Shown here: piece after piece, positions 4,368-29,952 of the stretch
How the letters are laid out: the number at the start of each line of letters is the position of its first letter
Numbering within the stretch: position 1 is the stretch's first letter
Assembly (NCBI GenBank): GCA_043820105.1
Contig: JBDREC010000089.1
Span: 1-39,965 of the forward strand
Length of the DNA: 39,965 nucleotides
Direction: 5' to 3'
Source: Pseudomonadota bacterium
GTDB taxonomy: Bacteria > Bdellovibrionota_F > JAHFAK01 > JBDREC01
The notes under the pieces: model-generated
What the model saw: only the letters and a program-made list of their open reading frames with translations
What the model was told of the DNA's origin: nothing
Databases searched by the model: none
Translations under genes and position numbers: made by a program

Positions 4368-5696
4368 TTATTTATTTATTATATTGAGTAGCATTTCTCT
4401 GAAAGTGCCACTTGCATTGAATTTGCCAAGGTTTCCAAAGTGACCTGCTAAAGTTCTATCTATAAAAACAATGTCTCTTGGAAACTGGAATTTTGAAATT
4501 TCTAAGAAATGTTTGGTTTTGAGCTTTATCATTTGCTGAATTATTTCTTTATTTTCATTAAAAGTGTATTCGCCAGAGGTTGACATCTTTTCAAATGGGG
4601 TAAAAAAATCATTTACTAATTCTTGAGAAACTTCATTGCCCCCATAGATATAAATTCCGATTTTCTTTAAATAAGGTGGCAAAGCTTCAACATCACTTTT
4701 TAAAACGCTAGAAGTAAAATCCTTCAAATGAGGAAGCAGCTTTTCGGGAATGGTTTTTACACATCCAAAATCATAAACAATGATTCGCCCATCTTCTAAA
4801 AAGGCAAAGTTAGCAAGGTTTGGATCTGCGTGCAAAAACCTGTGAACAAAAAAACTTTCAAAAACAAATCTAAAAAGGGCTTTTGACCACTTATTTTTTA
4901 GCTCTTGGCCATAGGCACCTGAGCAGGCATCTTGTCCTGAAATTCCAACAAGGAGTTCCATTGTTAGAACATGCTTTGTTGAAAGCTCTTTAATAACTCT
5001 CGGGATAACAACTTCATGAGAATCTGCAAAAAAGGTGGCAACCTTTTCGACACTTGAAGCTTCCCTTTCATAATCTAATTCTTCAAGAAGCCTTGCCTGC
5101 AGCTCTTTCCAGATTGGTTCAAAATTGACTTTCATAAACAAGCCAATCAAACTTTTAAAAATGCCCTTTAGATTTTTAAGGTCTGCTTTTATTACTTTAT
5201 CAATATCTGGATATTGGATTTTTAAGGCAACTTCTCGGCCATCACGCAGCCTTGCTTTGTGAATTTGGCCAATGCTAGCAGCTGCATAGGCTTCCTCATC
5301 AATCCATTCAATTTCTGAAAACTTTTCTTTCAGATCTTTTTTAACTAAAACTTTCATTTTTTCAAAAGGAACCGCTGGGGCTTGGGATTGTAATAAAGAA
5401 AGAATCTTAGCGACTTCTGGTGGCATTAAACTGTCTTGCAAACTTAGCATTTGACCAACCTTCATTGCTCCACCCTTTAACCTGCCAAGAGTTTCAGCTA
5501 TTCTTTGAGCATTATTCACAAGGTTTTCGATTTTATGCTTTTCAACAGACTCAGAATTCCGAAAAATATCTAGGGTCTTGTTTCCCAGAATAGATAAACC
5601 TACTGTCCCTACTAAAGAAGAAACAGAATAAAGCCGAGATATTGAAGAAGAAACAATGTCTTCCTGCTTTTTTTCTTTTTTTTTATCATTAACCAT
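4368..5696 (-). CDS. ABC1/UbiB/COQ8-family atypical kinase
   Basis: KGGAMKVGQMLS (KxGQ), AAASIGQIHKA, VALKIQYP, EELDY, HADPNLANF, YDFGC. Confidence 0.93.
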   Translation of the reverse strand: MVNDKKKEKKQEDIVSSSISRLYSVSSLVGTVGLSILGNKTLDIFRNSESVEKHKIENLVNNAQRIAETLGRLKGGAMKVGQMLSLQDSLMPPEVAKILSLLQSQAPAVPFEKMKVLVKKDLKEKFSEIEWIDEEAYAAASIGQIHKARLRDGREVALKIQYPDIDKVIKADLKNLKGIFKSLIGLFMKVNFEPIWKELQARLLEELDYEREASSVEKVATFFADSHEVVIPRVIKELSTKHVLTMELLVGISGQDACSGAYGQELKNKWSKALFRFVFESFFVHRFLHADPNLANFAFLEDGRIIVYDFGCVKTIPEKLLPHLKDFTSSVLKSDVEALPPYLKKIGIYIYGGNEVSQELVNDFFTPFEKMSTSGEYTFNENKEIIQQMIKLKTKHFLEISKFQFPRDIVFIDRTLAGHFGNLGKFNASGTFREMLLNIINK

Positions 5697-5907
5697 ATTT
5701 TAATTAACCCTAAATACTATTAAAACACAAGTAAAAGCTGTGTTCGGCCGGATGAGAAATATCCACACATAAGATTAAAAACTTATGTATATCCAATATG
5801 CTATATTTTTTTTATATTGACGATTTTTCAAAGTACCAATACGAACTTATCATATATATTATTCGGTCTTATTTTATTAAATTTACAAAAATGGAGATTG
5901 TAGGAGA

Positions 5908-6258
5908 ATGAATTCAAAACTAGTATATTGTAAGCCGTCTTTATTAAATATCAATCATAAACGACACCAACAGGATTGCGTTGATGGCTCCGGTGCTTCA
6001 TCAAGCACCTTGGACTGTGGCATTGGTAGTATTGACAACCAAAATACAGGGTGTGGAGCGGGACATGTAGCTGAGACATCAAGCAATCCTCAGGCTTGTT
6101 ACAATGGCACTATTGCTCAATCATGGGATTGGGGACTAACTGGCTGTGAAACTGGTACCAGTGCAAATAGCAACGGTGGCACAAATTGTTCAGGTGGCAG
6201 CAAAGCAGATGCTACACGCTCTACATGTGAAACCGGTGGATCTCCTACTAATTGGTAA
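5908..6258 (+). CDS. Putative RiPP precursor peptide with YxxPxL leader and seven CxxG repeats
   Basis: Leader YCKPSL. Core repeats CVDG, CGIG, CGAG, CYNG, CETG, CSGG, CETG in a Gly/Ser/Thr/Asn-rich background. GGAG elements upstream. Confidence 0.7.
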   Translation: MNSKLVYCKPSLLNINHKRHQQDCVDGSGASSSTLDCGIGSIDNQNTGCGAGHVAETSSNPQACYNGTIAQSWDWGLTGCETGTSANSNGGTNCSGGSKADATRSTCETGGSPTNW

Positions 6259-6415: not shown

Positions 6416-7483
6416 ATGAGTAAAATCGCATTTAATATCATTTTAATATTATTTTTTATTACACCTGCCTTTGCATCTATTTCAAAATATGCAAAAGACA
6501 TGAAAAGTGGTGACCCAGATGTTAGACGAAAAGCACTTTATGAACTTGCCCAAATAAATACTAAAAAAGGAAATGATTATATAATAAAAGCTTTAGATGA
6601 TAAAAACGGGATGATACGAAGAAATGCAACCTTTATTTTGGGAACCTTAAAAGACAAAAGAGCAATTGCAAAACTTTCTCAAGTTGTTTTTTATGATGAA
6701 TCTCCTGAGGTTTCTTTATTTGCTGCTGAAGCTCTTTATAAACTTGGGATAAAGTCAGGCCTAAAGGTTTTGATTTCAAGCATTGAAAATAAAAATATAT
6801 CTATTGCCTTGCTGGCTATAGATAAACTAGAAGCAATGAAAGAGCAAGAAGCCCTTGTGACACTTGAAAAGAATTCAAAAACAAATGTAAGCGCTGAAGT
6901 CAAAAACAGAGCGGCAAAGGCAGTAAAAGTATTAAAAGGTGAAATTGATTATGATAAAGTTTTAAAGGCGAAAAACATTGTTGAAGATATTTATAGATCC
7001 TTTGATTCTTCACTTCCAGAGGAAATCGAAAAGAAAATTCAAAAAGCCATAAAGCTTGATCCTTTATTACCAGATATCTACATGATACTAGGAACTCTTC
7101 ATAACCAAAACAGCTCAAAGTGGAGTCAAGCTATAGAAGAATTTAAAAAAGCTCAAGATCTTGGCTATACTGACCGTGGTGAACTTTTCTTTTACATGGG
7201 CACTCTGTATTTAAACCTTGGAAAATTTCAGGATGCTATTAAAACTCTTACTAAAGCTGCTAAAGAAAAAAATGATGCTGATTCTTATTATCAACTTGGA
7301 ATTGTTTATTCTCGAATTAACCAAACTCAAAAGGCTATTGAGGTTACAGAAAAAGCAATAAAGATAGATCCAACTTATTCAATTGCCTATTATAATCTTT
7401 CCCAACTTTATAAAAGCATTGGAAACCCGTCAAAGTCTTCACAATATCTTGATCAATATAACTTAATGACTTCAAAAAAATAA
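6416..7483 (+). CDS. Exported HEAT-repeat plus TPR-repeat protein
   Basis: Signal peptide ending PAFA. HEAT motifs (DPDVRRKALYEL, IRRNATFILG). TPR motifs (SYYQLGIVY, AIKIDPTYSIAYYNL). Confidence 0.85.
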   Translation: MSKIAFNIILILFFITPAFASISKYAKDMKSGDPDVRRKALYELAQINTKKGNDYIIKALDDKNGMIRRNATFILGTLKDKRAIAKLSQVVFYDESPEVSLFAAEALYKLGIKSGLKVLISSIENKNISIALLAIDKLEAMKEQEALVTLEKNSKTNVSAEVKNRAAKAVKVLKGEIDYDKVLKAKNIVEDIYRSFDSSLPEEIEKKIQKAIKLDPLLPDIYMILGTLHNQNSSKWSQAIEEFKKAQDLGYTDRGELFFYMGTLYLNLGKFQDAIKTLTKAAKEKNDADSYYQLGIVYSRINQTQKAIEVTEKAIKIDPTYSIAYYNLSQLYKSIGNPSKSSQYLDQYNLMTSKK

Positions 7484-7497
7484 AAGTGGCTGTAATT

Positions 7498-8706
7498 TTA
7501 AGACAAAAAATTAGAAGCTGATACAATATAGCAATTATCTTTACCAGCTTTTATAACATCAGGGTCATGAATCAATTGAACCAGAGGTACATTTAGAATT
7601 TTAGAATGATCAATGTTATGAGATTCAAAGTTCTTAGAGCTCAATTTCGTTTCAATGAGCAAAAATGGTTTTTCGTCTCTTGTTATTATAAAATCAGTTT
7701 CTCGTTTATCTCTTAATCTTATAAAATTAAGATTAAAGGTGTATTTTGTAGCCATATTCCAAAGCTCTATTCTATTTTTTAGTTCACAGGCAACATAATT
7801 TTCAAATCTTGCCGCCTTATCCTTCACTTGTGTCCAATCATAAAAATAGACTTTTTTTTCTTTTTTTACAGCTCTTGAAATCTTTTCTGAATAAGGAGAA
7901 ATATTAAAAATTACATATGTTAGAATAAGAGAATTAACATAATTTTTAATAGCATTAAAACTAACATTTAAATCTTCTCTCAAAGAATTTAAAGACAAGG
8001 GTGAGCCTATCTTTGCAGGTAATAAATGCATTAGGGTAACAATATTCTCAAGCTCTTGAATCTTTGTGAGATCTCTTAGATCAGATCTAACAAGAGTATC
8101 AATGTAATTATTATGCCAATTAGAAGAAAAAACAGCATTCCCTTTAAGCAGTGGTTCTGGAAAGCCACCAAATTTTAATAATTGATCTAATTGTTTTTGA
8201 TTGCAATGGCTTTTAATATTTTCTTCAATATATTCTATAGCATTTCCAGTGGGAAGGACAAAGTTTGATTTCATCAATTCAAATAGCGATACAGGCAATA
8301 ATCGAAACAAGAAAAAACGCCCAGATAAGCTGTCTCCAGCTTTACGAAAAAGATCTAGTCTAGCTGAGCCTGTTACAATAAAATTATACTTTTGCTCAAA
8401 TGAATCAAATCCATCTTTTAAAATATCTTTCCATCTTGGATATTTGTGAATTTCATCAAAACAAATCCATTTTTTCCGACGTGTTTTTATTGTAATAGCA
8501 TCTGAGTGATAAAAATAAGGGTCATCAATGAATCGTCTCTTTATAGTCCTTAAGTCCCAGTTATAGTATAAATCTTCAAAACCGGTATCTTTTAAATATT
8601 TTTTAGCTAGAGTTGTCTTTCCAACTTGCCTTGGACCAGCAACAAACCTCATTTGACGGCCAAAGATTTTTGAAAAACATAGCTTTTCTAAATACCTTTC
8701 AATCAT
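7498..8706 (-). CDS. AAA+ ATPase, AAA_14/DUF4143 family
   Basis: Walker A GPRQVGKTT, Walker B FDEIHK, VTGSA, SLSGR, GGFPE, KVYFYD, FENYV, and a C-terminal ETDF..IETK nuclease-like motif. Confidence 0.92.
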   Translation of the reverse strand: MIERYLEKLCFSKIFGRQMRFVAGPRQVGKTTLAKKYLKDTGFEDLYYNWDLRTIKRRFIDDPYFYHSDAITIKTRRKKWICFDEIHKYPRWKDILKDGFDSFEQKYNFIVTGSARLDLFRKAGDSLSGRFFLFRLLPVSLFELMKSNFVLPTGNAIEYIEENIKSHCNQKQLDQLLKFGGFPEPLLKGNAVFSSNWHNNYIDTLVRSDLRDLTKIQELENIVTLMHLLPAKIGSPLSLNSLREDLNVSFNAIKNYVNSLILTYVIFNISPYSEKISRAVKKEKKVYFYDWTQVKDKAARFENYVACELKNRIELWNMATKYTFNLNFIRLRDKRETDFIITRDEKPFLLIETKLSSKNFESHNIDHSKILNVPLVQLIHDPDVIKAGKDNCYIVSASNFLS

Positions 8707-8978: not shown

Positions 8979-9614
8979 ATGCACACGCAAACCCTCAAAG
9001 AAGAAATTATAAATACTGTCATTCATGGTGTTGGTTTTTTGTTTGCTATGGCAGCTCTCATTTTAATGATAGTTTACGCTAGCCTTACAAAGGAACTAAT
9101 GCTCATTGCCAGTACAACTGTTTTTGGAATCAGCTTAGTATTTTTATATTATTCATCATCTCTTTATCACGCCTTTTCTTTAACAAACGCCAAATATGTT
9201 TTTCGTAAAATCGATCATTTTAATATTTACATTCTTATTGCAGGTACCTACACGCCGTTTGCACTGTCTGTTGTTGGTGGTGCCTGGGGCTGGACTCTTT
9301 TTGGAATAGAATGGGGGCTTGTTGTAGCTGGAATTGCATGGAAATCTTATTTTGGATATAGATATGATTTTTATGCAACAATGGGTTATGCTGTAATGGG
9401 ATGGATGATGATCATTGTTATAAAGCCACTTCTTGCAAATTTCAATTATTGGGGAATCTTTTGGCTATTCGGAGGAGGTGTTTTCTACACCCTCGGAATT
9501 CCATTTTTTTTATTAGATACCAAGCACAAATATTTTCATAATATCTGGCATGTATTTGTTTTAGCAGGCTCTGTATGTCATTTTTTATCAGTGTTTTTGT
9601 ATATAATTCCTTAA
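8979..9614 (+). CDS. Hemolysin III / PAQR family membrane protein
   Basis: EEIINTVIHG, SSLYHA, KIDHFNIYILIAGTYTP, GGVFYTLG, HNIWHVFVLAGSVCHF. Confidence 0.95.
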   Translation: MHTQTLKEEIINTVIHGVGFLFAMAALILMIVYASLTKELMLIASTTVFGISLVFLYYSSSLYHAFSLTNAKYVFRKIDHFNIYILIAGTYTPFALSVVGGAWGWTLFGIEWGLVVAGIAWKSYFGYRYDFYATMGYAVMGWMMIIVIKPLLANFNYWGIFWLFGGGVFYTLGIPFFLLDTKHKYFHNIWHVFVLAGSVCHFLSVFLYIIP

Positions 9615-9648
9615 TAAGAGAACAAGAGCGCAGGGGAACAAGGGAACA
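9611..9648 (+). repeat. 38-bp dispersed repeat, copy 1 (octamer-based, GAACAAGG-like)
   Basis: 35/38 identical to the reverse complement of 23668-23705. Confidence 0.85.
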
Positions 9649-9993
9649 TGGTGAATATTATTGCTACTTGCTGGCTGCTAGCTGCTGCTTGCTGTTGTAG
9701 ATTGAATTCATTCTTTTGATAAACTTCTTTAAAAGCATTTGCTCTTTTTCTTCTTGTTTCAACATCTAATACCTTATTAAATAGAAGCATAACAAGCGGA
9801 GAAATAAAGGCAGAAAGCGCTATGACTCTCCACATAAGTTCTGTGTTTCTTTCACCTTGCTCTGGACATAGTGTATAAAGTAAGATTCCTGTAGTTGGTC
9901 CCACAAGAAGCCTTCCAAAAAACATTGGTATAGTTGATAATGCCATATATGATACGAGTTGATTATCAGGAGCAACTGAAGCAGTATAATCCT
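9611..9993 (-). pseudogene. C-terminal fragment of an MFS transporter
   Basis: The frame extends upstream of the called Met as DYTASVAPDNQLVSYMALSTIPMFFGRLLVGPTTGILL, resembling the final two MFS helices. It is closed by a stop at about 10010 and the rest of the gene is absent. Confidence 0.55.
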
Positions 9994-25782: not shown

Positions 25783-26655
25783 TTAGTCTCCTGTTAAAAG
25801 CGCTTTTTCTAAATTACCTGCACATGATTTTAATTTTTCAAAGGCCTTTTGTACAGAAATATTTTGCTTTTGAGATAAAATTGATACCTTAAGGTCATCT
25901 TTTGCACTTTTCAAAATAGTATGAGCTTCTTTTTCTGATATATTTAGCTCTTTTGATAAAATATTAAGTTGCCTTTTTCTTAATTTTTCGTTTGTACAGG
26001 CAACGTTGGTCATTAGATTTCCATAGGTTTTGCCTAGTTTTATCATTGAAAGAGTAGAAATCATATTAAGAATTATTTTTTGGCTTGTTCCTGCTTTTAG
26101 CCTGGAAGAACCAAGAATGATTTCTTCGCCCAAGGAGGGGCTAATTACAATGTCATATTTATAAATAAGGTTTTGCTTGTTTTGCCCGGTTGTAACTAAA
26201 ATGGTAAAAGCCTTTTTTCTTTTAGCATAATTCAAGGCTGAAAGGGTAAAGGGTGTTGTTCCACTGGCACTAATGCCAATGCAAATATCGTTTTTATTTA
26301 GCTTTCTTTTTTTAAGTTCTTCAACTGAAGCCTTCTTATCATCTTCAGCGCCTTCCACTGCCTTATAAATCGCCTTTTTACCTCCAGCCATGATTGGAAT
26401 AACCTGATCATCAAACACTGAAAACGTTGGAGCAAGCTCAGCTGCATCTAAATATCCCAATCTTCCTGAAGTCCCAGCACCTATATAAAAAAGCCTGCCA
26501 GCTGTTGATAAAGCATTAACAACTTCTCTTATAGCTTTATTAATTCGGGGAAGTTCTTTTTTAATGGATGAAATGACCTTGATATCATCTTCATTCATTT
26601 TTTTAGATATTTGAGCTATGCTTAAGCTCCTTAGATTCTTTTTACTTTGCTGCAC
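25783..26655 (-). CDS. murQ: N-acetylmuramic acid 6-phosphate etherase
   Basis: GRLFYIGAGTSGRLGYLDAAE..PTF, AVEGAED, GISASGTTP, GSSRLKAGTSQKIILNMIST, GNLM. Confidence 0.95.
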   Translation of the reverse strand: MQQSKKNLRSLSIAQISKKMNEDDIKVISSIKKELPRINKAIREVVNALSTAGRLFYIGAGTSGRLGYLDAAELAPTFSVFDDQVIPIMAGGKKAIYKAVEGAEDDKKASVEELKKRKLNKNDICIGISASGTTPFTLSALNYAKRKKAFTILVTTGQNKQNLIYKYDIVISPSLGEEIILGSSRLKAGTSQKIILNMISTLSMIKLGKTYGNLMTNVACTNEKLRKRQLNILSKELNISEKEAHTILKSAKDDLKVSILSQKQNISVQKAFEKLKSCAGNLEKALLTGD

Positions 26656-27265
26656 TTTTTCTTTTCCTTTTCATGCTAATAAGACCTGATTTAATTAAAT
26701 CATCACTATATTTATAAAAAAGAGTTTCTTCATTTTCAACCATTTTGCTTGTAATGTAAGCTATTTCTGAAAACCTTAATCTGTTTTGCTTGGTTGAAAA
26801 ATCCAATCCATACTGCTCACAATGAGCAGCAATTAGAATTCCTTTTTTAGAGTAATCAAAAACATATGGCCAGGCAAAACACAAAAGAGGTTTAATGCCC
26901 TGAATAGAACATCGATATTTCTCTTTATCCAGCAAATTACAGTGCCCTCTTTTGGGAAGCTTAAGCATACAAACTCCCTGAGAATAATAATTATGATATT
27001 CATCATACAATTGAAAATGTTTTAACAAAGAATTATCAAGAAAGTGAGCAACGTCTACAAGATACAAAGGAATATAAGCCACATTTTTATGCATGCAACA
27101 GCGTGCCTTACATTTAAAGCAGGGATTTTCTTTAAGGACTTTCTTTGGAAGATTGGATTCTTTTTTTAGTATTTTTAAATAGCTTTTATGGTATTTGTCA
27201 TCTGTTTCTTTTTTGTCTTTTAGAATTTTAAGTAGCTTTTCAAAATATGTTGATTCACCTTTCAT
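26642..27265 (-). CDS. YkgJ / CxxCxxCC family cysteine-cluster (Zn/Fe-binding) protein
   Basis: CFKCKARCC, HCNLLD, CSIQGIKPLLCFAWP. Confidence 0.85.
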   Translation of the reverse strand: MKGESTYFEKLLKILKDKKETDDKYHKSYLKILKKESNLPKKVLKENPCFKCKARCCMHKNVAYIPLYLVDVAHFLDNSLLKHFQLYDEYHNYYSQGVCMLKLPKRGHCNLLDKEKYRCSIQGIKPLLCFAWPYVFDYSKKGILIAAHCEQYGLDFSTKQNRLRFSEIAYITSKMVENEETLFYKYSDDLIKSGLISMKRKRKSAAK

Positions 27266-28058
27266 TAATAGCCGCCTCTAAAGTTTTAATAATTTTTTTA
27301 AAATCATCACATCGAAACTTATAAAAATCAATTGATTCCATAAGGCTTACTTTACAATAAGGAAGCATTGAATTCTTTCGTATTAGCCTATTACCTGCTT
27401 CGTGTGATATTTTAGCGAATTCACATGCTTTAACTCTTGCTCTTTTAAAAAAAACAACTTTTTTCAAATAGGTTTTTTCTTTCTGATTTCTCTGGCTTAA
27501 TTTGAATATATAGGGAGCAACTTCTAGTTTTTTATAATTTTTAATGTTTTTTTTAATAACCTCATAGCCTTTATAAGAGCTCACAACCAGGCGAGGCAAA
27601 GGTAAAACTTCATTTGTTTTTACATTTATCAAGGCTATTTCATCTGATAAATACTTATAACCAAGCTCAGCCATTTTAATTGATATTAAAGACTTGCCTG
27701 AGAATTTATTAGCAGAAATCACAATTGCTTTTTCGCCCTTTGCAAATACAGCTGCATGAATTTTTGCATAAGCAGACTCCAGGTGCACAATGTCTTTAAT
27801 TAAATACCATTCAAAATTCGCAAGCAAATCCCAATAATCATTGGCTACATAATCTAGATTTTGATTTTCATAAATTTCATATTCATTATTTTTATTATAA
27901 ATAAGAGTATATATTTTGGATATTTTGCTTGTTTGCTTACTGTTTATAAAGGAAAAAAAATAAGGGCTCAGATCTTTTACAAGATTTTCAAAAAGATCCT
28001 GACTATTTGATTTCACAGAAATTAATTTATTATTTAAGTCAATAATCTTGGAAAACAC
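27255..28058 (-). CDS. HPr-kinase-related P-loop protein
   Basis: IHAAVF..AIVISANKFSGKS..GYKYLSDEIALI..PLPR; GTG start directly after the PqqD stop. Confidence 0.75.
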   Translation of the reverse strand: MFSKIIDLNNKLISVKSNSQDLFENLVKDLSPYFFSFINSKQTSKISKIYTLIYNKNNEYEIYENQNLDYVANDYWDLLANFEWYLIKDIVHLESAYAKIHAAVFAKGEKAIVISANKFSGKSLISIKMAELGYKYLSDEIALINVKTNEVLPLPRLVVSSYKGYEVIKKNIKNYKKLEVAPYIFKLSQRNQKEKTYLKKVVFFKRARVKACEFAKISHEAGNRLIRKNSMLPYCKVSLMESIDFYKFRCDDFKKIIKTLEAAINER

Positions 28059-28331
28059 TTATGCCTTTCTAACAAGATCTTGATTTTCAAGTTCACTTAC
28101 TATTTTTTTAATATCAATTAAAGCTTGTTTCTTATTCACTTCATATCTAGTCTTAAGCTCTTCAGCTATTTCATCCAGGGTATTATTACCAGTGCATGCC
28201 TTCCATATCAAAGTACTTGTTGCATTCAAGGTTAAAACCTTTGAACCATCTTGATTAAACAAAAGAATTTCATCACCAACTGGTCTTTGAATAATTCCCC
28301 TGGATTTTTTAAATTTATCATTATTTTTCAT
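28059..28331 (-). CDS. PqqD-family RiPP recognition element
   Basis: VGDEILLF..LTLNATSTLIWKACTG..TLDEIAEELKTRYEV..ALIDI..L...DLV. Confidence 0.92.
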   Translation of the reverse strand: MKNNDKFKKSRGIIQRPVGDEILLFNQDGSKVLTLNATSTLIWKACTGNNTLDEIAEELKTRYEVNKKQALIDIKKIVSELENQDLVRKA

Positions 28332-29422
28332 TAATTATATTTCTCATAATAAATTAAACTTAGCTTTTTTATCTCATCATACATTTCTTTGCAACCATTA
28401 AAACCAAATGTCTTTGGATAACCATGGTATAAAGGAGCTTGTCTGCACATACCACAAACAGGCTTATATTCGCATTTTAAGCATTCTGAATTTGGGACAT
28501 TAATTTTTAGGATATCTTTTACCTTTTTAATGATATCATCATCTGAACACTCTTCACTTATTATTGAAACAGGCTCATCAAGTTCACATCTTCTCAAATT
28601 TCCATAACAATCAATTTCAAGTAAAGTGCCACCAAAGCACCCATAAAATGCAGACTCAAAACTTAGCATCTTCCTTTGAAAATCCCCTGGAGAGAAGCCT
28701 AAAAACCATATTGGTTCAACATGTGTATACTTTTTCATTATTAGAGAATGGTATTTTGCAGATGCCTCCATATATTCTTCTAAGGTTAAGACCATTTTCA
28801 TAACAGCTGCTTTTGTTGAGTGCCTATGTCCTTTGGGAAAATGTAGGATTGGGTGAACAAAGTGAGATATTTTGCAGCTATTTCTTTGTCCTAGATTATT
28901 TAAATAAATTAAAAGAGGCTCAAGTTCTTTAAAGTTATTCTTTGTTAAGGTTGTTTTAATTGAAGTGCTAATATTGGCGTTAAAATATTTTTCAAAATTA
29001 CCAATTACACTTTTATAGGATTTTCTGGTAAATTCATGAACTTTATCAATACCATCAACACTGACACTTACAGAAAATAAGTTATTATCAACTTTTAGTT
29101 TTTTGTTTGTTAAAATCTTGTCCGGAATATTAAAACCATTTGTAACATATGTAAGGCAAACACCATTATTAACAAGATAATCAATAAAGCTGTAAACAGC
29201 CTTTGAAGTCAATATTTCTCCGCCTGATAGCTGAAGGCGAAGTTGGGCATTTCCTAAGTGCTTTAGCAAGGCATCTATTATTTTTTTTCTGAAACTATAA
29301 GTGATGTATTTTTTCTTGTTTTTTTTTTCGATATAACAATAAGGACATGAAAAATTACAATTCTTGGTAATTTCCATAACAATATTACAAAATTGAAGTT
29401 GCTTTGGTAAGATCTTGGTCAT
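28331..29422 (-). CDS. Radical SAM/SPASM-domain peptide maturase
   Basis: CNFSCPYC (CxxxCxxC), SGGE, VTNG, VSVDG. SPASM cysteines: CFGG..IDCYGNLRRC..CLKCEYKPVCGMC..GC. Confidence 0.92.
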   Translation of the reverse strand: MTKILPKQLQFCNIVMEITKNCNFSCPYCYIEKKNKKKYITYSFRKKIIDALLKHLGNAQLRLQLSGGEILTSKAVYSFIDYLVNNGVCLTYVTNGFNIPDKILTNKKLKVDNNLFSVSVSVDGIDKVHEFTRKSYKSVIGNFEKYFNANISTSIKTTLTKNNFKELEPLLIYLNNLGQRNSCKISHFVHPILHFPKGHRHSTKAAVMKMVLTLEEYMEASAKYHSLIMKKYTHVEPIWFLGFSPGDFQRKMLSFESAFYGCFGGTLLEIDCYGNLRRCELDEPVSIISEECSDDDIIKKVKDILKINVPNSECLKCEYKPVCGMCRQAPLYHGYPKTFGFNGCKEMYDEIKKLSLIYYEKYN

Positions 29423-29445
29423 TTATTTTATAAATTTCTAATAAG

Positions 29446-29952
29446 CTAATTTTTCTTCTTATCATAATCGAAAAGAGAATCTTTTTTGCCTTTATCATCA
29501 TATGGCTGGCCATAGCTTTGATTATAAGTTCCTTCTTGCCCAGGCATTCCACCTCCAGGAGCAGGAACTATAACAGGAGCTGGCTGACCCCATTGTGTTT
29601 TTTGATCTTCGGTTTCTCCTGGCATGCCACCCTTGCCTGATCCACCACCACCTTTAACCTTCTCACAATAAGATCCATTCCAAACATAATTAGCAGGACA
29701 TTTTAGAGTAGTACAAACCCCTTTTCCTGGGTCCCATTTTAAGGCTGGTGGGCAAACACAGCTTTTAACTTTAGTATTAAAAACCTTATTTTTGGGACAA
29801 GAAATACCTTTAATCCATACGGGCTTTGGTGGAGCAAAGGCTTTTTCTATCATCATAGTCTCAATTGTTGGAACAAGATAGGGAAGAAGTAGGGCAGACT
29901 TTGCTGACTTTTTTAAAAAATCTCTTCTTTTATTATCTGTTTTATGTGCCAT
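29446..29952 (-). CDS. Putative precursor/substrate protein: twin-arginine plus YxxP leader, three Cys-pair repeats, Gly/Pro-rich tail
   Basis: RRDFLKK, PYLVPTI, AFA; CPKNKVFNTKVKSC, CPPALKWDPGKGVC, CPANYVWNGSYC; two GGMPG...[WY]GQP repeats. Confidence 0.7.
   Translation of the reverse strand: MAHKTDNKRRDFLKKSAKSALLLPYLVPTIETMMIEKAFAPPKPVWIKGISCPKNKVFNTKVKSCVCPPALKWDPGKGVCTTLKCPANYVWNGSYCEKVKGGGGSGKGGMPGETEDQKTQWGQPAPVIVPAPGGGMPGQEGTYNQSYGQPYDDKGKKDSLFDYDKKKN

Follow-up and report, generated by a model that had tools for sequence, protein, structure and literature searches.

The open reading frame (ORF) at positions 5908-6258 (plus strand) of contig JBDREC010000089.1 from a Pseudomonadota bacterium (GCA_043820105.1) encodes a peptide of 116 residues in which an N-terminal leader is followed by cysteine-containing repeats; the window refers here to the whole stretch of 39,965 nucleotides that was analyzed. 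With a probability of about 0.7, the window peptide, divergent and without annotation, belongs to the ScmA-type family of precursors and is matured in trans by a dispersed set of SynChlorMet (SCM) enzymes. At least 24 precursor genes of this family are spread over 20 contigs of the same genome (G000; 3.81 Mb, 113 contigs, hereafter denoted by C numbers), and family peptides in other genomes sit within or beside SCM cassettes. The cassettes near these peptides encode two radical S-adenosylmethionine (SAM) enzymes of the SPASM type, ScmE and ScmF, a PqqD-type protein (ScmD), an HprK-like protein (ScmC), an archaeal-type signal-peptidase-like (SpI-like) protease, and an ABC exporter.

The Window Peptide

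The coordinates of the ORF include the stop codon, and its ATG start is preceded by two GGAG motifs at 5893-5896 and 5903-5906 (plus strand; 11 nt and 1 nt 5′ of the ATG), which were read from the sequence as putative ribosome-binding sites. The leader comprises residues 1-23 (5908-5976) and begins with M-x-x-K-L-V-Y-C-K-P-S-L, in which Y-C-K-P-S-L occupies residues 7-12 (nt 5926-5943). The core comprises residues 24-116 (5977-6255) and carries cysteines at residues 24, 37, 49, 64, 80, 94, and 107, that is, at spacings of 13, 12, 15, 16, 14, and 13 residues; an eighth cysteine, residue 8, lies within the leader motif. The features on which the initial annotation had relied, a YCKPSL leader and a cysteine every 12-16 residues, always as C-x-x-G (7/7) and mostly as C-x-x-G-x-x-A (5/7), were all re-read in the ORF, and when residues 19-116 were shuffled 200,000 times, seven C-x-x-G units were never reached. 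The guanine-cytosine (GC) content of the ORF is 44.8%, compared with 31.6% in the 500 nt upstream and 32% in the genome; at codon positions 1, 2, and 3 it amounts to 0.448, 0.595, and 0.302, the third being genome-like, so that the excess is confined to positions 1 and 2, as a genuine gene with abundant Gly, Ser, Thr, and Ala codons would show. The initial description of the ORF is confirmed. Furthermore, its leader, Y7-C-K-P10-S-L12, contains the [Y/W]xxPx[L/V/I/F/A] motif, which, according to excerpts of a report on linear polyphosphorylated peptide (LPP) clusters (PMC13381572), is bound by discrete PqqD-like RiPP recognition elements (RREs; RiPP, ribosomally made peptide with post-translational modifications), and the earlier impression of a RiPP precursor is upheld.

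When used alone as a query, the window peptide matched no NCBIfam model at E ≤ 10, recovered only itself in a word-index protein search, gave no more than chance-level matches in 60 sampled genomes, and retrieved from the ESM Atlas only clusters of “hypothetical protein” at 0.85-0.86, which is under the bar of 0.9; its ESM Atlas model has a predicted local distance difference test (pLDDT) value of 0.34. A Pfam match to Galaxin_repeat (13.6 bits, cut-off 28) was dismissed as compositional.

The Paralog Family

The peptide had been regarded as an orphan, which holds only locally. It lies between a UbiB/ABC1-type kinase gene (4368-5696, minus strand) and a gene for a HEAT/TPR protein (6416-7483, plus strand), and no maturase adjoins it, just as had been claimed; nevertheless, the search for paralogous C-x-x-G peptides that the initial annotation had proposed revealed a family of 24 ORFs in the genome. 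The first paralog, a weak match on C46 with 28% identity and the same leader, was obtained by searching the genome with the window peptide, and the family was collected by a motif scan and then a hidden Markov model of nine seeds, which retrieved the 24 members from 36,937 six-frame ORFs (E < 1e-3) and no further member in the second round. In total, 22 of the 24 ORFs start with M-(K/R)-Y-x-x-P-x-[LIV]. In an alignment of 21 members of this genome (A1), positions Y7, P10, C24, G27, and C37 are invariant (Y7 and P10 in 21/21), and the consensus reads MKYxxPxL, ten residues, CxxGSxAS, and then further C-x-x-G units. The window peptide shares 23-34% identity with its paralogs in this alignment.

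Some of the copies are incomplete: those on C65 (51 aa) and at C10:44276 (44 aa) are truncated, and those on C68 and C12 are leaderless. The 44-aa copy belongs to a decayed remnant at C10:43775-44940, which also holds a leaderless C-x-x-G fragment. A 74-aa ORF beside this remnant is a radical-SAM fragment, 70% identical to the C-terminus of a non-Scm radical SAM gene that stands after two family peptides in an Eubacteriales locus (L088).

The Family in Other Genomes

The A1 profile was searched against 1.84 billion representative proteins (E ≤ 1e-3) and yielded 460 matches, nearly all of 70-120 aa and aligned from profile position 1. Among the best 150 of the 460, 144 are no longer than 130 aa. 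The initial annotation had counted loss of the leader motif in homologs against its own proposal; besides being kept in this genome, the motif is present in 142 of these 144 short public relatives (this genome's copies included). In the 142, Tyr is found in 99%, Pro in 100%, Leu at +5 in 87%, and Met at -2 in 75%, and the first Cys follows 16-17 residues past the leader Tyr. The repeat logo of the family is C-x-[TSDN]-G(94%)-[STGN]-x-A(45%), with a spacing of mostly 10-13 residues, and the peptides are mostly of 80-116 aa with 5-9 repeats. Four long proteins in the profile list (P0002, P0031, P0106, and P0091) have no related domains and were set aside as compositional matches. A word-index search with A1 returned five proteins, four of which are from this genome.

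A degenerate DNA pattern covering the leader and first repeat was additionally run against species genomes. This gave 68 stretches, of which 25 pass an in-frame check and 18 encode family peptides; the other seven were discarded as chance matches, being either single C-x-x-G occurrences or 278-aa proteins whose hydrophobic N-terminus resembles a signal peptide. According to their labels, the 18 loci are distributed among Victivallales/Victivallaceae (6), Kapabacteria (3, in one genome), Eubacteriales (2), and delta-proteobacteria (2), with one each in Anaerolineales, Aminicenantes, Desulfatiglandales, “Bacterium BMS3Abin06,” and Woesearchaeota. The last of these (L066), labeled as a DPANN archaeon, encodes an 80-aa family peptide on the minus strand (1835-2074); in its 1.7-Mb genome neither ScmE nor ScmF was found, and the only ScmC-like match scores 41 bits. 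The Kapabacteria genome contains 16 copies, several of them over 100 kb away from each of its two cassettes, indicating that trans-encoded copies are not peculiar to the genome studied here. The latter represents a deep lineage, for which the comparison genomes include only two of the same order and one of the same class. These three relatives contain no family peptide at E ≤ 1e-5 and no ScmC, and a sub-threshold ScmF-like match of 288 bits is found in the genome of the same class.

Association with SCM Cassettes

A radical SAM gene occurs within 2 kb of the peptide at six of the 18 family loci, and five of these six genes are orthologous to ScmE or ScmF of this genome (BLAST, 43-58% identity). 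At one locus (L068), the order is peptide, PqqD, and radical SAM/SPASM gene, and its ScmD is 48% identical to that of this genome; furthermore, a protein of 288-293 aa beside the peptides at L048, L068, and L094 matches the ScmC region of this genome (C111:8011-8910). Three cassettes in other genomes were mapped. The Kapabacteria cassette L121 reads peptide, ScmD, ScmE, peptide, ScmF, ABC exporter, ScmC, SpI-like protease, and peptide. The Victivallaceae cassette L122 has ScmF, ScmE, ScmD, and a peptide on one strand and a peptide, ScmC, and another peptide on the other, with three peptides between ScmD and ScmC, followed by the SpI-like protease and ABC exporter. The best-scoring cassette of the sample, L113, consists of ScmD, ScmE, ScmF, a 55-aa peptide, ScmC, and the SpI-like protease. 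ScmC, ScmD, ScmE, and ScmF all exceed their cut-offs in L113; in L121 and L122 the same is true of ScmC, ScmE, and ScmF, and ScmD falls just under (85.8 and 97.4 vs. 100).

The association is also seen when the cassettes are taken as the starting point. A small ORF with the leader and at least two C-x-x-G units was detected by a regular expression in 11 of the 12 SCM loci (nine genomes), and the same expression gave two non-family matches in 2.89 million residues of six-frame ORFs of this genome. Of the 11 other peptide-bearing genomes, eight have an ScmF over its cut-off and one more carries a split ScmF at 5 kb from its peptide; in a sample of 400 genomes, the cut-off is exceeded by ScmF in five and by ScmC in four. 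The link to a PqqD protein and radical SAM enzymes that had been drawn from the window alone is borne out at the level of the family, which is genetically tied to a PqqD protein and to two radical-SAM/SPASM enzymes.

In this genome the cassette is dispersed. ScmE is encoded on C1 (C1:89815-90993; 378 bits, cut-off 400, NCBIfam), ScmF (C10:152425-153600; 546 bits, cut-off 400) and ScmD (C10:153584-153880; 124 bits, cut-off 100) lie together on C10, a second ScmF (C10:129203-130276; 434 bits, cut-off 400) adjoins the SpI-like protease elsewhere on C10 (59.8 bits, cut-off 51.85), and ScmC (C111:8014-8865; 235 bits, cut-off 125) is directly upstream of a family paralog (C111:7788-7994). ScmD of this genome is 39-51% identical to nine cassette ScmDs. 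ScmC possesses an invariant G-K-[ST]-T P-loop and a weak Pfam match to Hpr_kinase_C, and its model (pLDDT 82.4, predicted template modeling score 0.84) finds phosphoenolpyruvate (PEP) carboxykinases as its best Foldseek matches (E 7e-6, TMq 0.49). ScmE and ScmF show weak matches to the PapB, StsB, and AlbA models. Two ArsA-family ATPase genes come directly before the SpI-like protease and second ScmF (C10:126542-130276; L039:3543-7277).

The SCM cassette is described in NCBIfam by the models TIGR04248-TIGR04252, the last of which, “SynChlorMet cassette protein ScmA” (49 positions, cut-off 35 bits), is the one provided for the precursor; within the library searched, no paper on the SynChlorMet cassette was found. 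Position in or beside a ScmC/D/E/F cassette, which characterizes ScmA, is absent for the window copy and present for the family, as the C111 paralog adjoins ScmC and peptides occur in 11 of the 12 SCM loci. Sub-threshold TIGR04252 matches fall on cassette-adjacent peptides, with 29.9 (L118), 16.6 (L120), 12 (the C111 paralog), and 11.5 bits, and their alignments begin at model position 1; moreover, the three top matches in this genome (12.1-12.7 bits) are all family members.

Several results weigh against assigning the window peptide to an SCM system. TIGR04252 gives no match to the window peptide at E-values up to 10, scores no higher than 12.7 bits anywhere in the genome, and misses all 24 paralogs, and no Scm gene is detected in the 40-kb window with NCBIfam; ScmE of this genome also stays under its curated cut-off. 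The TIGR04252 cut-off is, however, reached in none of the five SCM genomes either, which, together with the sub-threshold matches on family members, shows that this kind of peptide is known bioinformatically and that the model is narrow. At one SCM locus (L115) the C-x-x-G repeats follow a different leader, and two peptide-bearing genomes (G063 and G065), which have few peptide matches and whose completeness is not reported, revealed neither ScmE nor ScmF. Conversely, the A1 profile (E ≤ 1e-5) detected no peptide in four of the five ScmF-positive genomes of the 400-genome sample, G330 being the only positive one, and the peptides in the SCM loci of those genomes were seen only by local search with weak E-values or by the regular expression; these peptides are evidently too divergent for a profile built from one genome. 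Finally, the genome encodes four PqqD proteins, namely ScmD, one in the window, one on C4, and the lasso B1 protein on C76, and the three further proteins may allow leader cross-talk.

These findings imply that TIGR04252 misses most real precursors and that the substrate is better defined more broadly, by an M-K-Y-x-K-P-x-L leader, a first Cys 16-17 residues after the Tyr, and a C-x-x-G unit every 10-13 residues. A family defined in this manner is widespread (460 clusters), some genomes multiply its precursors to 16-24 copies, and annotation pipelines at present leave these peptides unnamed.

Proposed Maturation

Sequence comparisons support the window peptide being an RRE-bound, radical-SAM-modified precursor that is matured in trans. 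Its leader would be captured by the discrete PqqD-type ScmD, which would hand the Cys-repeat core to ScmE and ScmF. These two enzymes would most likely convert the Cys of each C-x-x-G unit to an intramolecular cross-link; by analogy, thioether formation on the core is the default guess, as a Cys-repeat substrate together with two radical SAM enzymes of the SPASM type is the usual thioether setting of sactipeptides and ranthipeptides. ScmC, a P-loop protein with an HprK/PEP carboxykinase fold, probably phosphorylates a Ser residue of the core by analogy with LppK of the LPPs, and the SpI-like protease, judging from cassette content, would remove the leader. Since the enzymes are dispersed and at least 24 precursors, conserved in the leader and variable in the core, lie on 20 contigs, maturation of the window copy would occur in trans, as part of a library of such precursors.

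Capture of the leader was addressed by complex prediction. ScmD with residues 1-45 of the peptide scored 0.41, whereas the best of three controls scored 0.01; the runs agreed in at least 98% of contacts, with a partner pLDDT of at least 52. The score mark applied is reached by 58 of 80 solved complexes and by two of 110 mismatched pairs. The prediction lends weak support to the proposed pairing; scores of 0.60 or less occur in only seven of the 80 solved complexes and in both mismatched pairs that pass. RRE-leader complexes have already been solved, and likeness to them may contribute to the score.

A bolder version of this proposal is offered tentatively and is considered rather less probable than not: one dispersed SCM set, comprising the two radical-SAM/SPASM enzymes, the RRE, the HprK-like kinase, and the SpI-like protease, would mature at least 24 variable Cys-x-x-Gly “ladder” peptides throughout the genome via an 8-residue M-K-Y-x-K-P-x-L tag only, and the products would be multiply cross-linked and possibly phosphorylated.

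Alternative Explanations

The initial annotation had proposed that the peptide is modified in trans by the radical SAM/PqqD pair 22 kb away in the same window (28059-29422), one maturase thereby serving two very different substrates. Modification in trans is retained here; the choice of the local pair is not, since synteny and co-occurrence point to ScmC/D/E/F, and its involvement is now regarded as unlikely. The pair belongs to an RRE-based cluster on the minus strand (26642-29952) that encodes a 168-aa protein, the radical SAM enzyme, PqqD, a protein like HprK-related kinase A (56.5 bits, cut-off 200), and a CxxCxxCC protein, and it resembles the SCM triad in its logic; its PqqD is a true PqqD (57 bits), the nearest relatives of its radical SAM enzyme in other genomes are ScmE and ScmF, and, according to excerpts of PMC13381572, RREs from outside Bacillota can accept YxxP leaders promiscuously. 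The pair was, however, not seen at any of the 18 family loci and 12 SCM loci, and no orthologue of the radical SAM enzyme was found in the 11 peptide-bearing genomes, where its best match (47 bits) is 32% identical over 158 aa; among the matches listed, most coincide with the ScmE/ScmF genes of those genomes. The enzyme has no Pfam SPASM match, and the local PqqD reaches only 34 bits on TIGR04248 (cut-off 100) and shares 23-32% identity with cassette ScmDs over full or near-full length, compared with the 39-51% of the ScmD on C10. Furthermore, the cluster has a candidate substrate of its own, because the Cys/Gly-rich 168-aa protein directly upstream, with a twin-arginine-like N-terminus (RRDFLKKS), is probably what it modifies; by its sequence features, the cluster appears to be a different system that follows the same logic as SCM.

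With the SCM enzymes taken as the maturation machinery of the family, two other explanations concern the window copy and the chemistry. The dispersed copies, the window copy included, might be unmodified or decaying duplicates spread by mobile DNA, with only the cassette-adjacent copies being real substrates. This would account for the nine of 24 copies that lie within about 4 kb of contig ends, for the truncated and leaderless copies, for the radical-SAM fragment adjoining the C10 remnants, and for a repeated ORF family that flanks copies on C103, C108, C10, and C76 and has one member with an IS200-like Y1 transposase domain. The window copy itself is intact, however, with the invariant Y7, P10, and first Cys and with every core Cys in a C-x-x-G unit despite its low identity to the paralogs, and the retention of leader and Cys register at such identity indicates selection rather than decay; its GC content by codon position is gene-like, and many intact distant copies are also kept in the Kapabacteria genome. 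Decay of the window copy is thus judged improbable. The same low probability is assigned to a different chemistry of the same cassette, in which ScmC phosphorylates Ser/Thr, the cysteines react non-radically by elimination and addition in a lanthionine-like manner or serve as metal or disulfide ligands, and ScmE and ScmF are not thioether-forming. Such chemistry would suit the Ser/Thr-rich core, with Ser or Thr in 46% at repeat position +4, the kinase-like ScmC with its P-loop and PEP carboxykinase-like model, and the phosphorylation of core Ser by the HprK-like kinase of LPP clusters given in excerpts of PMC13381572. By contrast, the SCM cassettes mapped (L113, L121, and L122) revealed no lyase or cyclase domain, and the conserved partner of Cys within the repeat is the Gly at +3 (94%), not Ser or Thr. 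The combination of two SPASM-type enzymes with a Cys-repeat substrate, as mentioned above, likewise favors thioethers.

Neighboring Genes and Other RRE-Containing Loci

The genes that recur beside the paralogs encode MFS and RND transporters, sigma-54 activators, pilin-like proteins, and oxidoreductases, and no maturase is among them. RND pumps are found near the paralogs on C108, C10, and C76. In the window, a 111-aa ORF (9611-9946, minus strand) resembles a fragment of an MFS transporter, full-length relatives of which are located near paralogs on C108, C12, and C3, and an AAA_14/DUF4143 ATPase gene (7498-8706, minus strand) adjoins the HEAT/TPR gene and has a paralog near the family peptide on C95. 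A sigma-54 promoter scan of nine of the 22 regions upstream of family genes gave no consistent site, and scans for sigma-70 promoters and terminators did not rise above shuffles.

Three further loci of this genome contain comparable components. A lasso cluster (L024:743-6691; C76:83743-89691) encodes a lactam cyclase (263 bits), an HprK-like kinase, a PqqD-type B1 protein (62 bits), and a B2 protease (84 bits), and lies about 6 kb from the family paralog C76:95760-96086. An LPP-like set without a radical SAM gene (L042:5518-8737; C4:44517-47736) comprises an NTP_transf_5 nucleotidyltransferase, PqqD, HprK-related kinase A, and a PRMT-like methyltransferase. On C102 (L035:3006-9867), a 442-aa radical SAM/SPASM protein with an N-terminal extension of roughly 100 aa (PapB model 137 bits, anSME model 146 bits) is encoded beside an HprK-like protein, a C25 peptidase, and an ABC exporter.

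Comparison with Known Systems

The closest counterpart is the annotated SCM/ScmA system, whose enzymes are the same as those adjoining family peptides in other genomes. It differs from the present case in that its 49-position model contrasts with peptides mostly of 80-116 aa and in that this genome has a dispersed cassette and multiplied precursors.

The LPP clusters of Bacillota provide a biochemically characterized parallel. They comprise an SpI-like peptidase, an RRE, an HprK-like kinase, and an MsbA-like pump, and their precursors carry YxxP leaders; in excerpts of the same report, YxxP is essential for RRE binding, the kinase phosphorylates Ser in the core, and the SpI-like peptidase requires the RRE for cleavage (PMC13381572). 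All four components are present in L121 and L122, whereas this genome has the SpI-like protease, ScmD, and ScmC in dispersed form, and the pump was not assigned. The two systems also have in common an N-terminal Y-x-x-P-x-[LVI] leader and variable C-terminal cores. They differ in that the extended LPP leader, YxxPxVLxHQxIxFETxxS, is absent here and only Y-x-x-P-x-L is common to both, that the cores here consist of Cys-x-x-Gly repeats, that the SCM cassettes mapped revealed no NTP transferase, and that SCM cassettes carry two radical SAM/SPASM genes, whereas LPP clusters have no radical SAM enzymes, a term that does not occur in PMC13381572. By this analogy, the SCM cassette looks like LPP machinery with two radical SAM/SPASM enzymes and Cys-repeat cores added, and, through this likeness to recently characterized machinery, what ScmC, ScmD, and the SpI-like protease do can be tested directly.

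Lasso peptides resemble the family in that their leaders carry the [Y/W]xxPx[L/V/I/F/A] motif, to which a discrete PqqD-like RRE binds, although the macrolactam cyclase and B2 protease were not seen in L113, L121, and L122, and the lasso cluster of this genome, on C76, is separate. Ranthipeptides, sactipeptides, and SCIFF peptides have Cys-repeat cores, SPASM-type maturases, and an RRE; by contrast, ScmE and ScmF form a separate family with a discrete, unfused RRE, and the SCM system employs two maturases, a kinase-like protein, and a C-x-x-G repeat.

In their organization, the precursors are comparable to the prochlorosins, for which one maturase serves many dispersed precursors. The analogy is organizational only: in both cases numerous precursor genes are scattered, their leader being conserved and their cores variable; the prochlorosins have another leader, depend on a lanthionine synthetase, and occur in another phylum. 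If the genome-wide version of the maturation proposal is true, the system would represent the prochlorosin strategy in a radical-SAM form, with a chemistry not yet described, and the three other PqqD-type proteins, one of them in a lasso cluster, would make this genome well suited to testing how leaders are kept separate.

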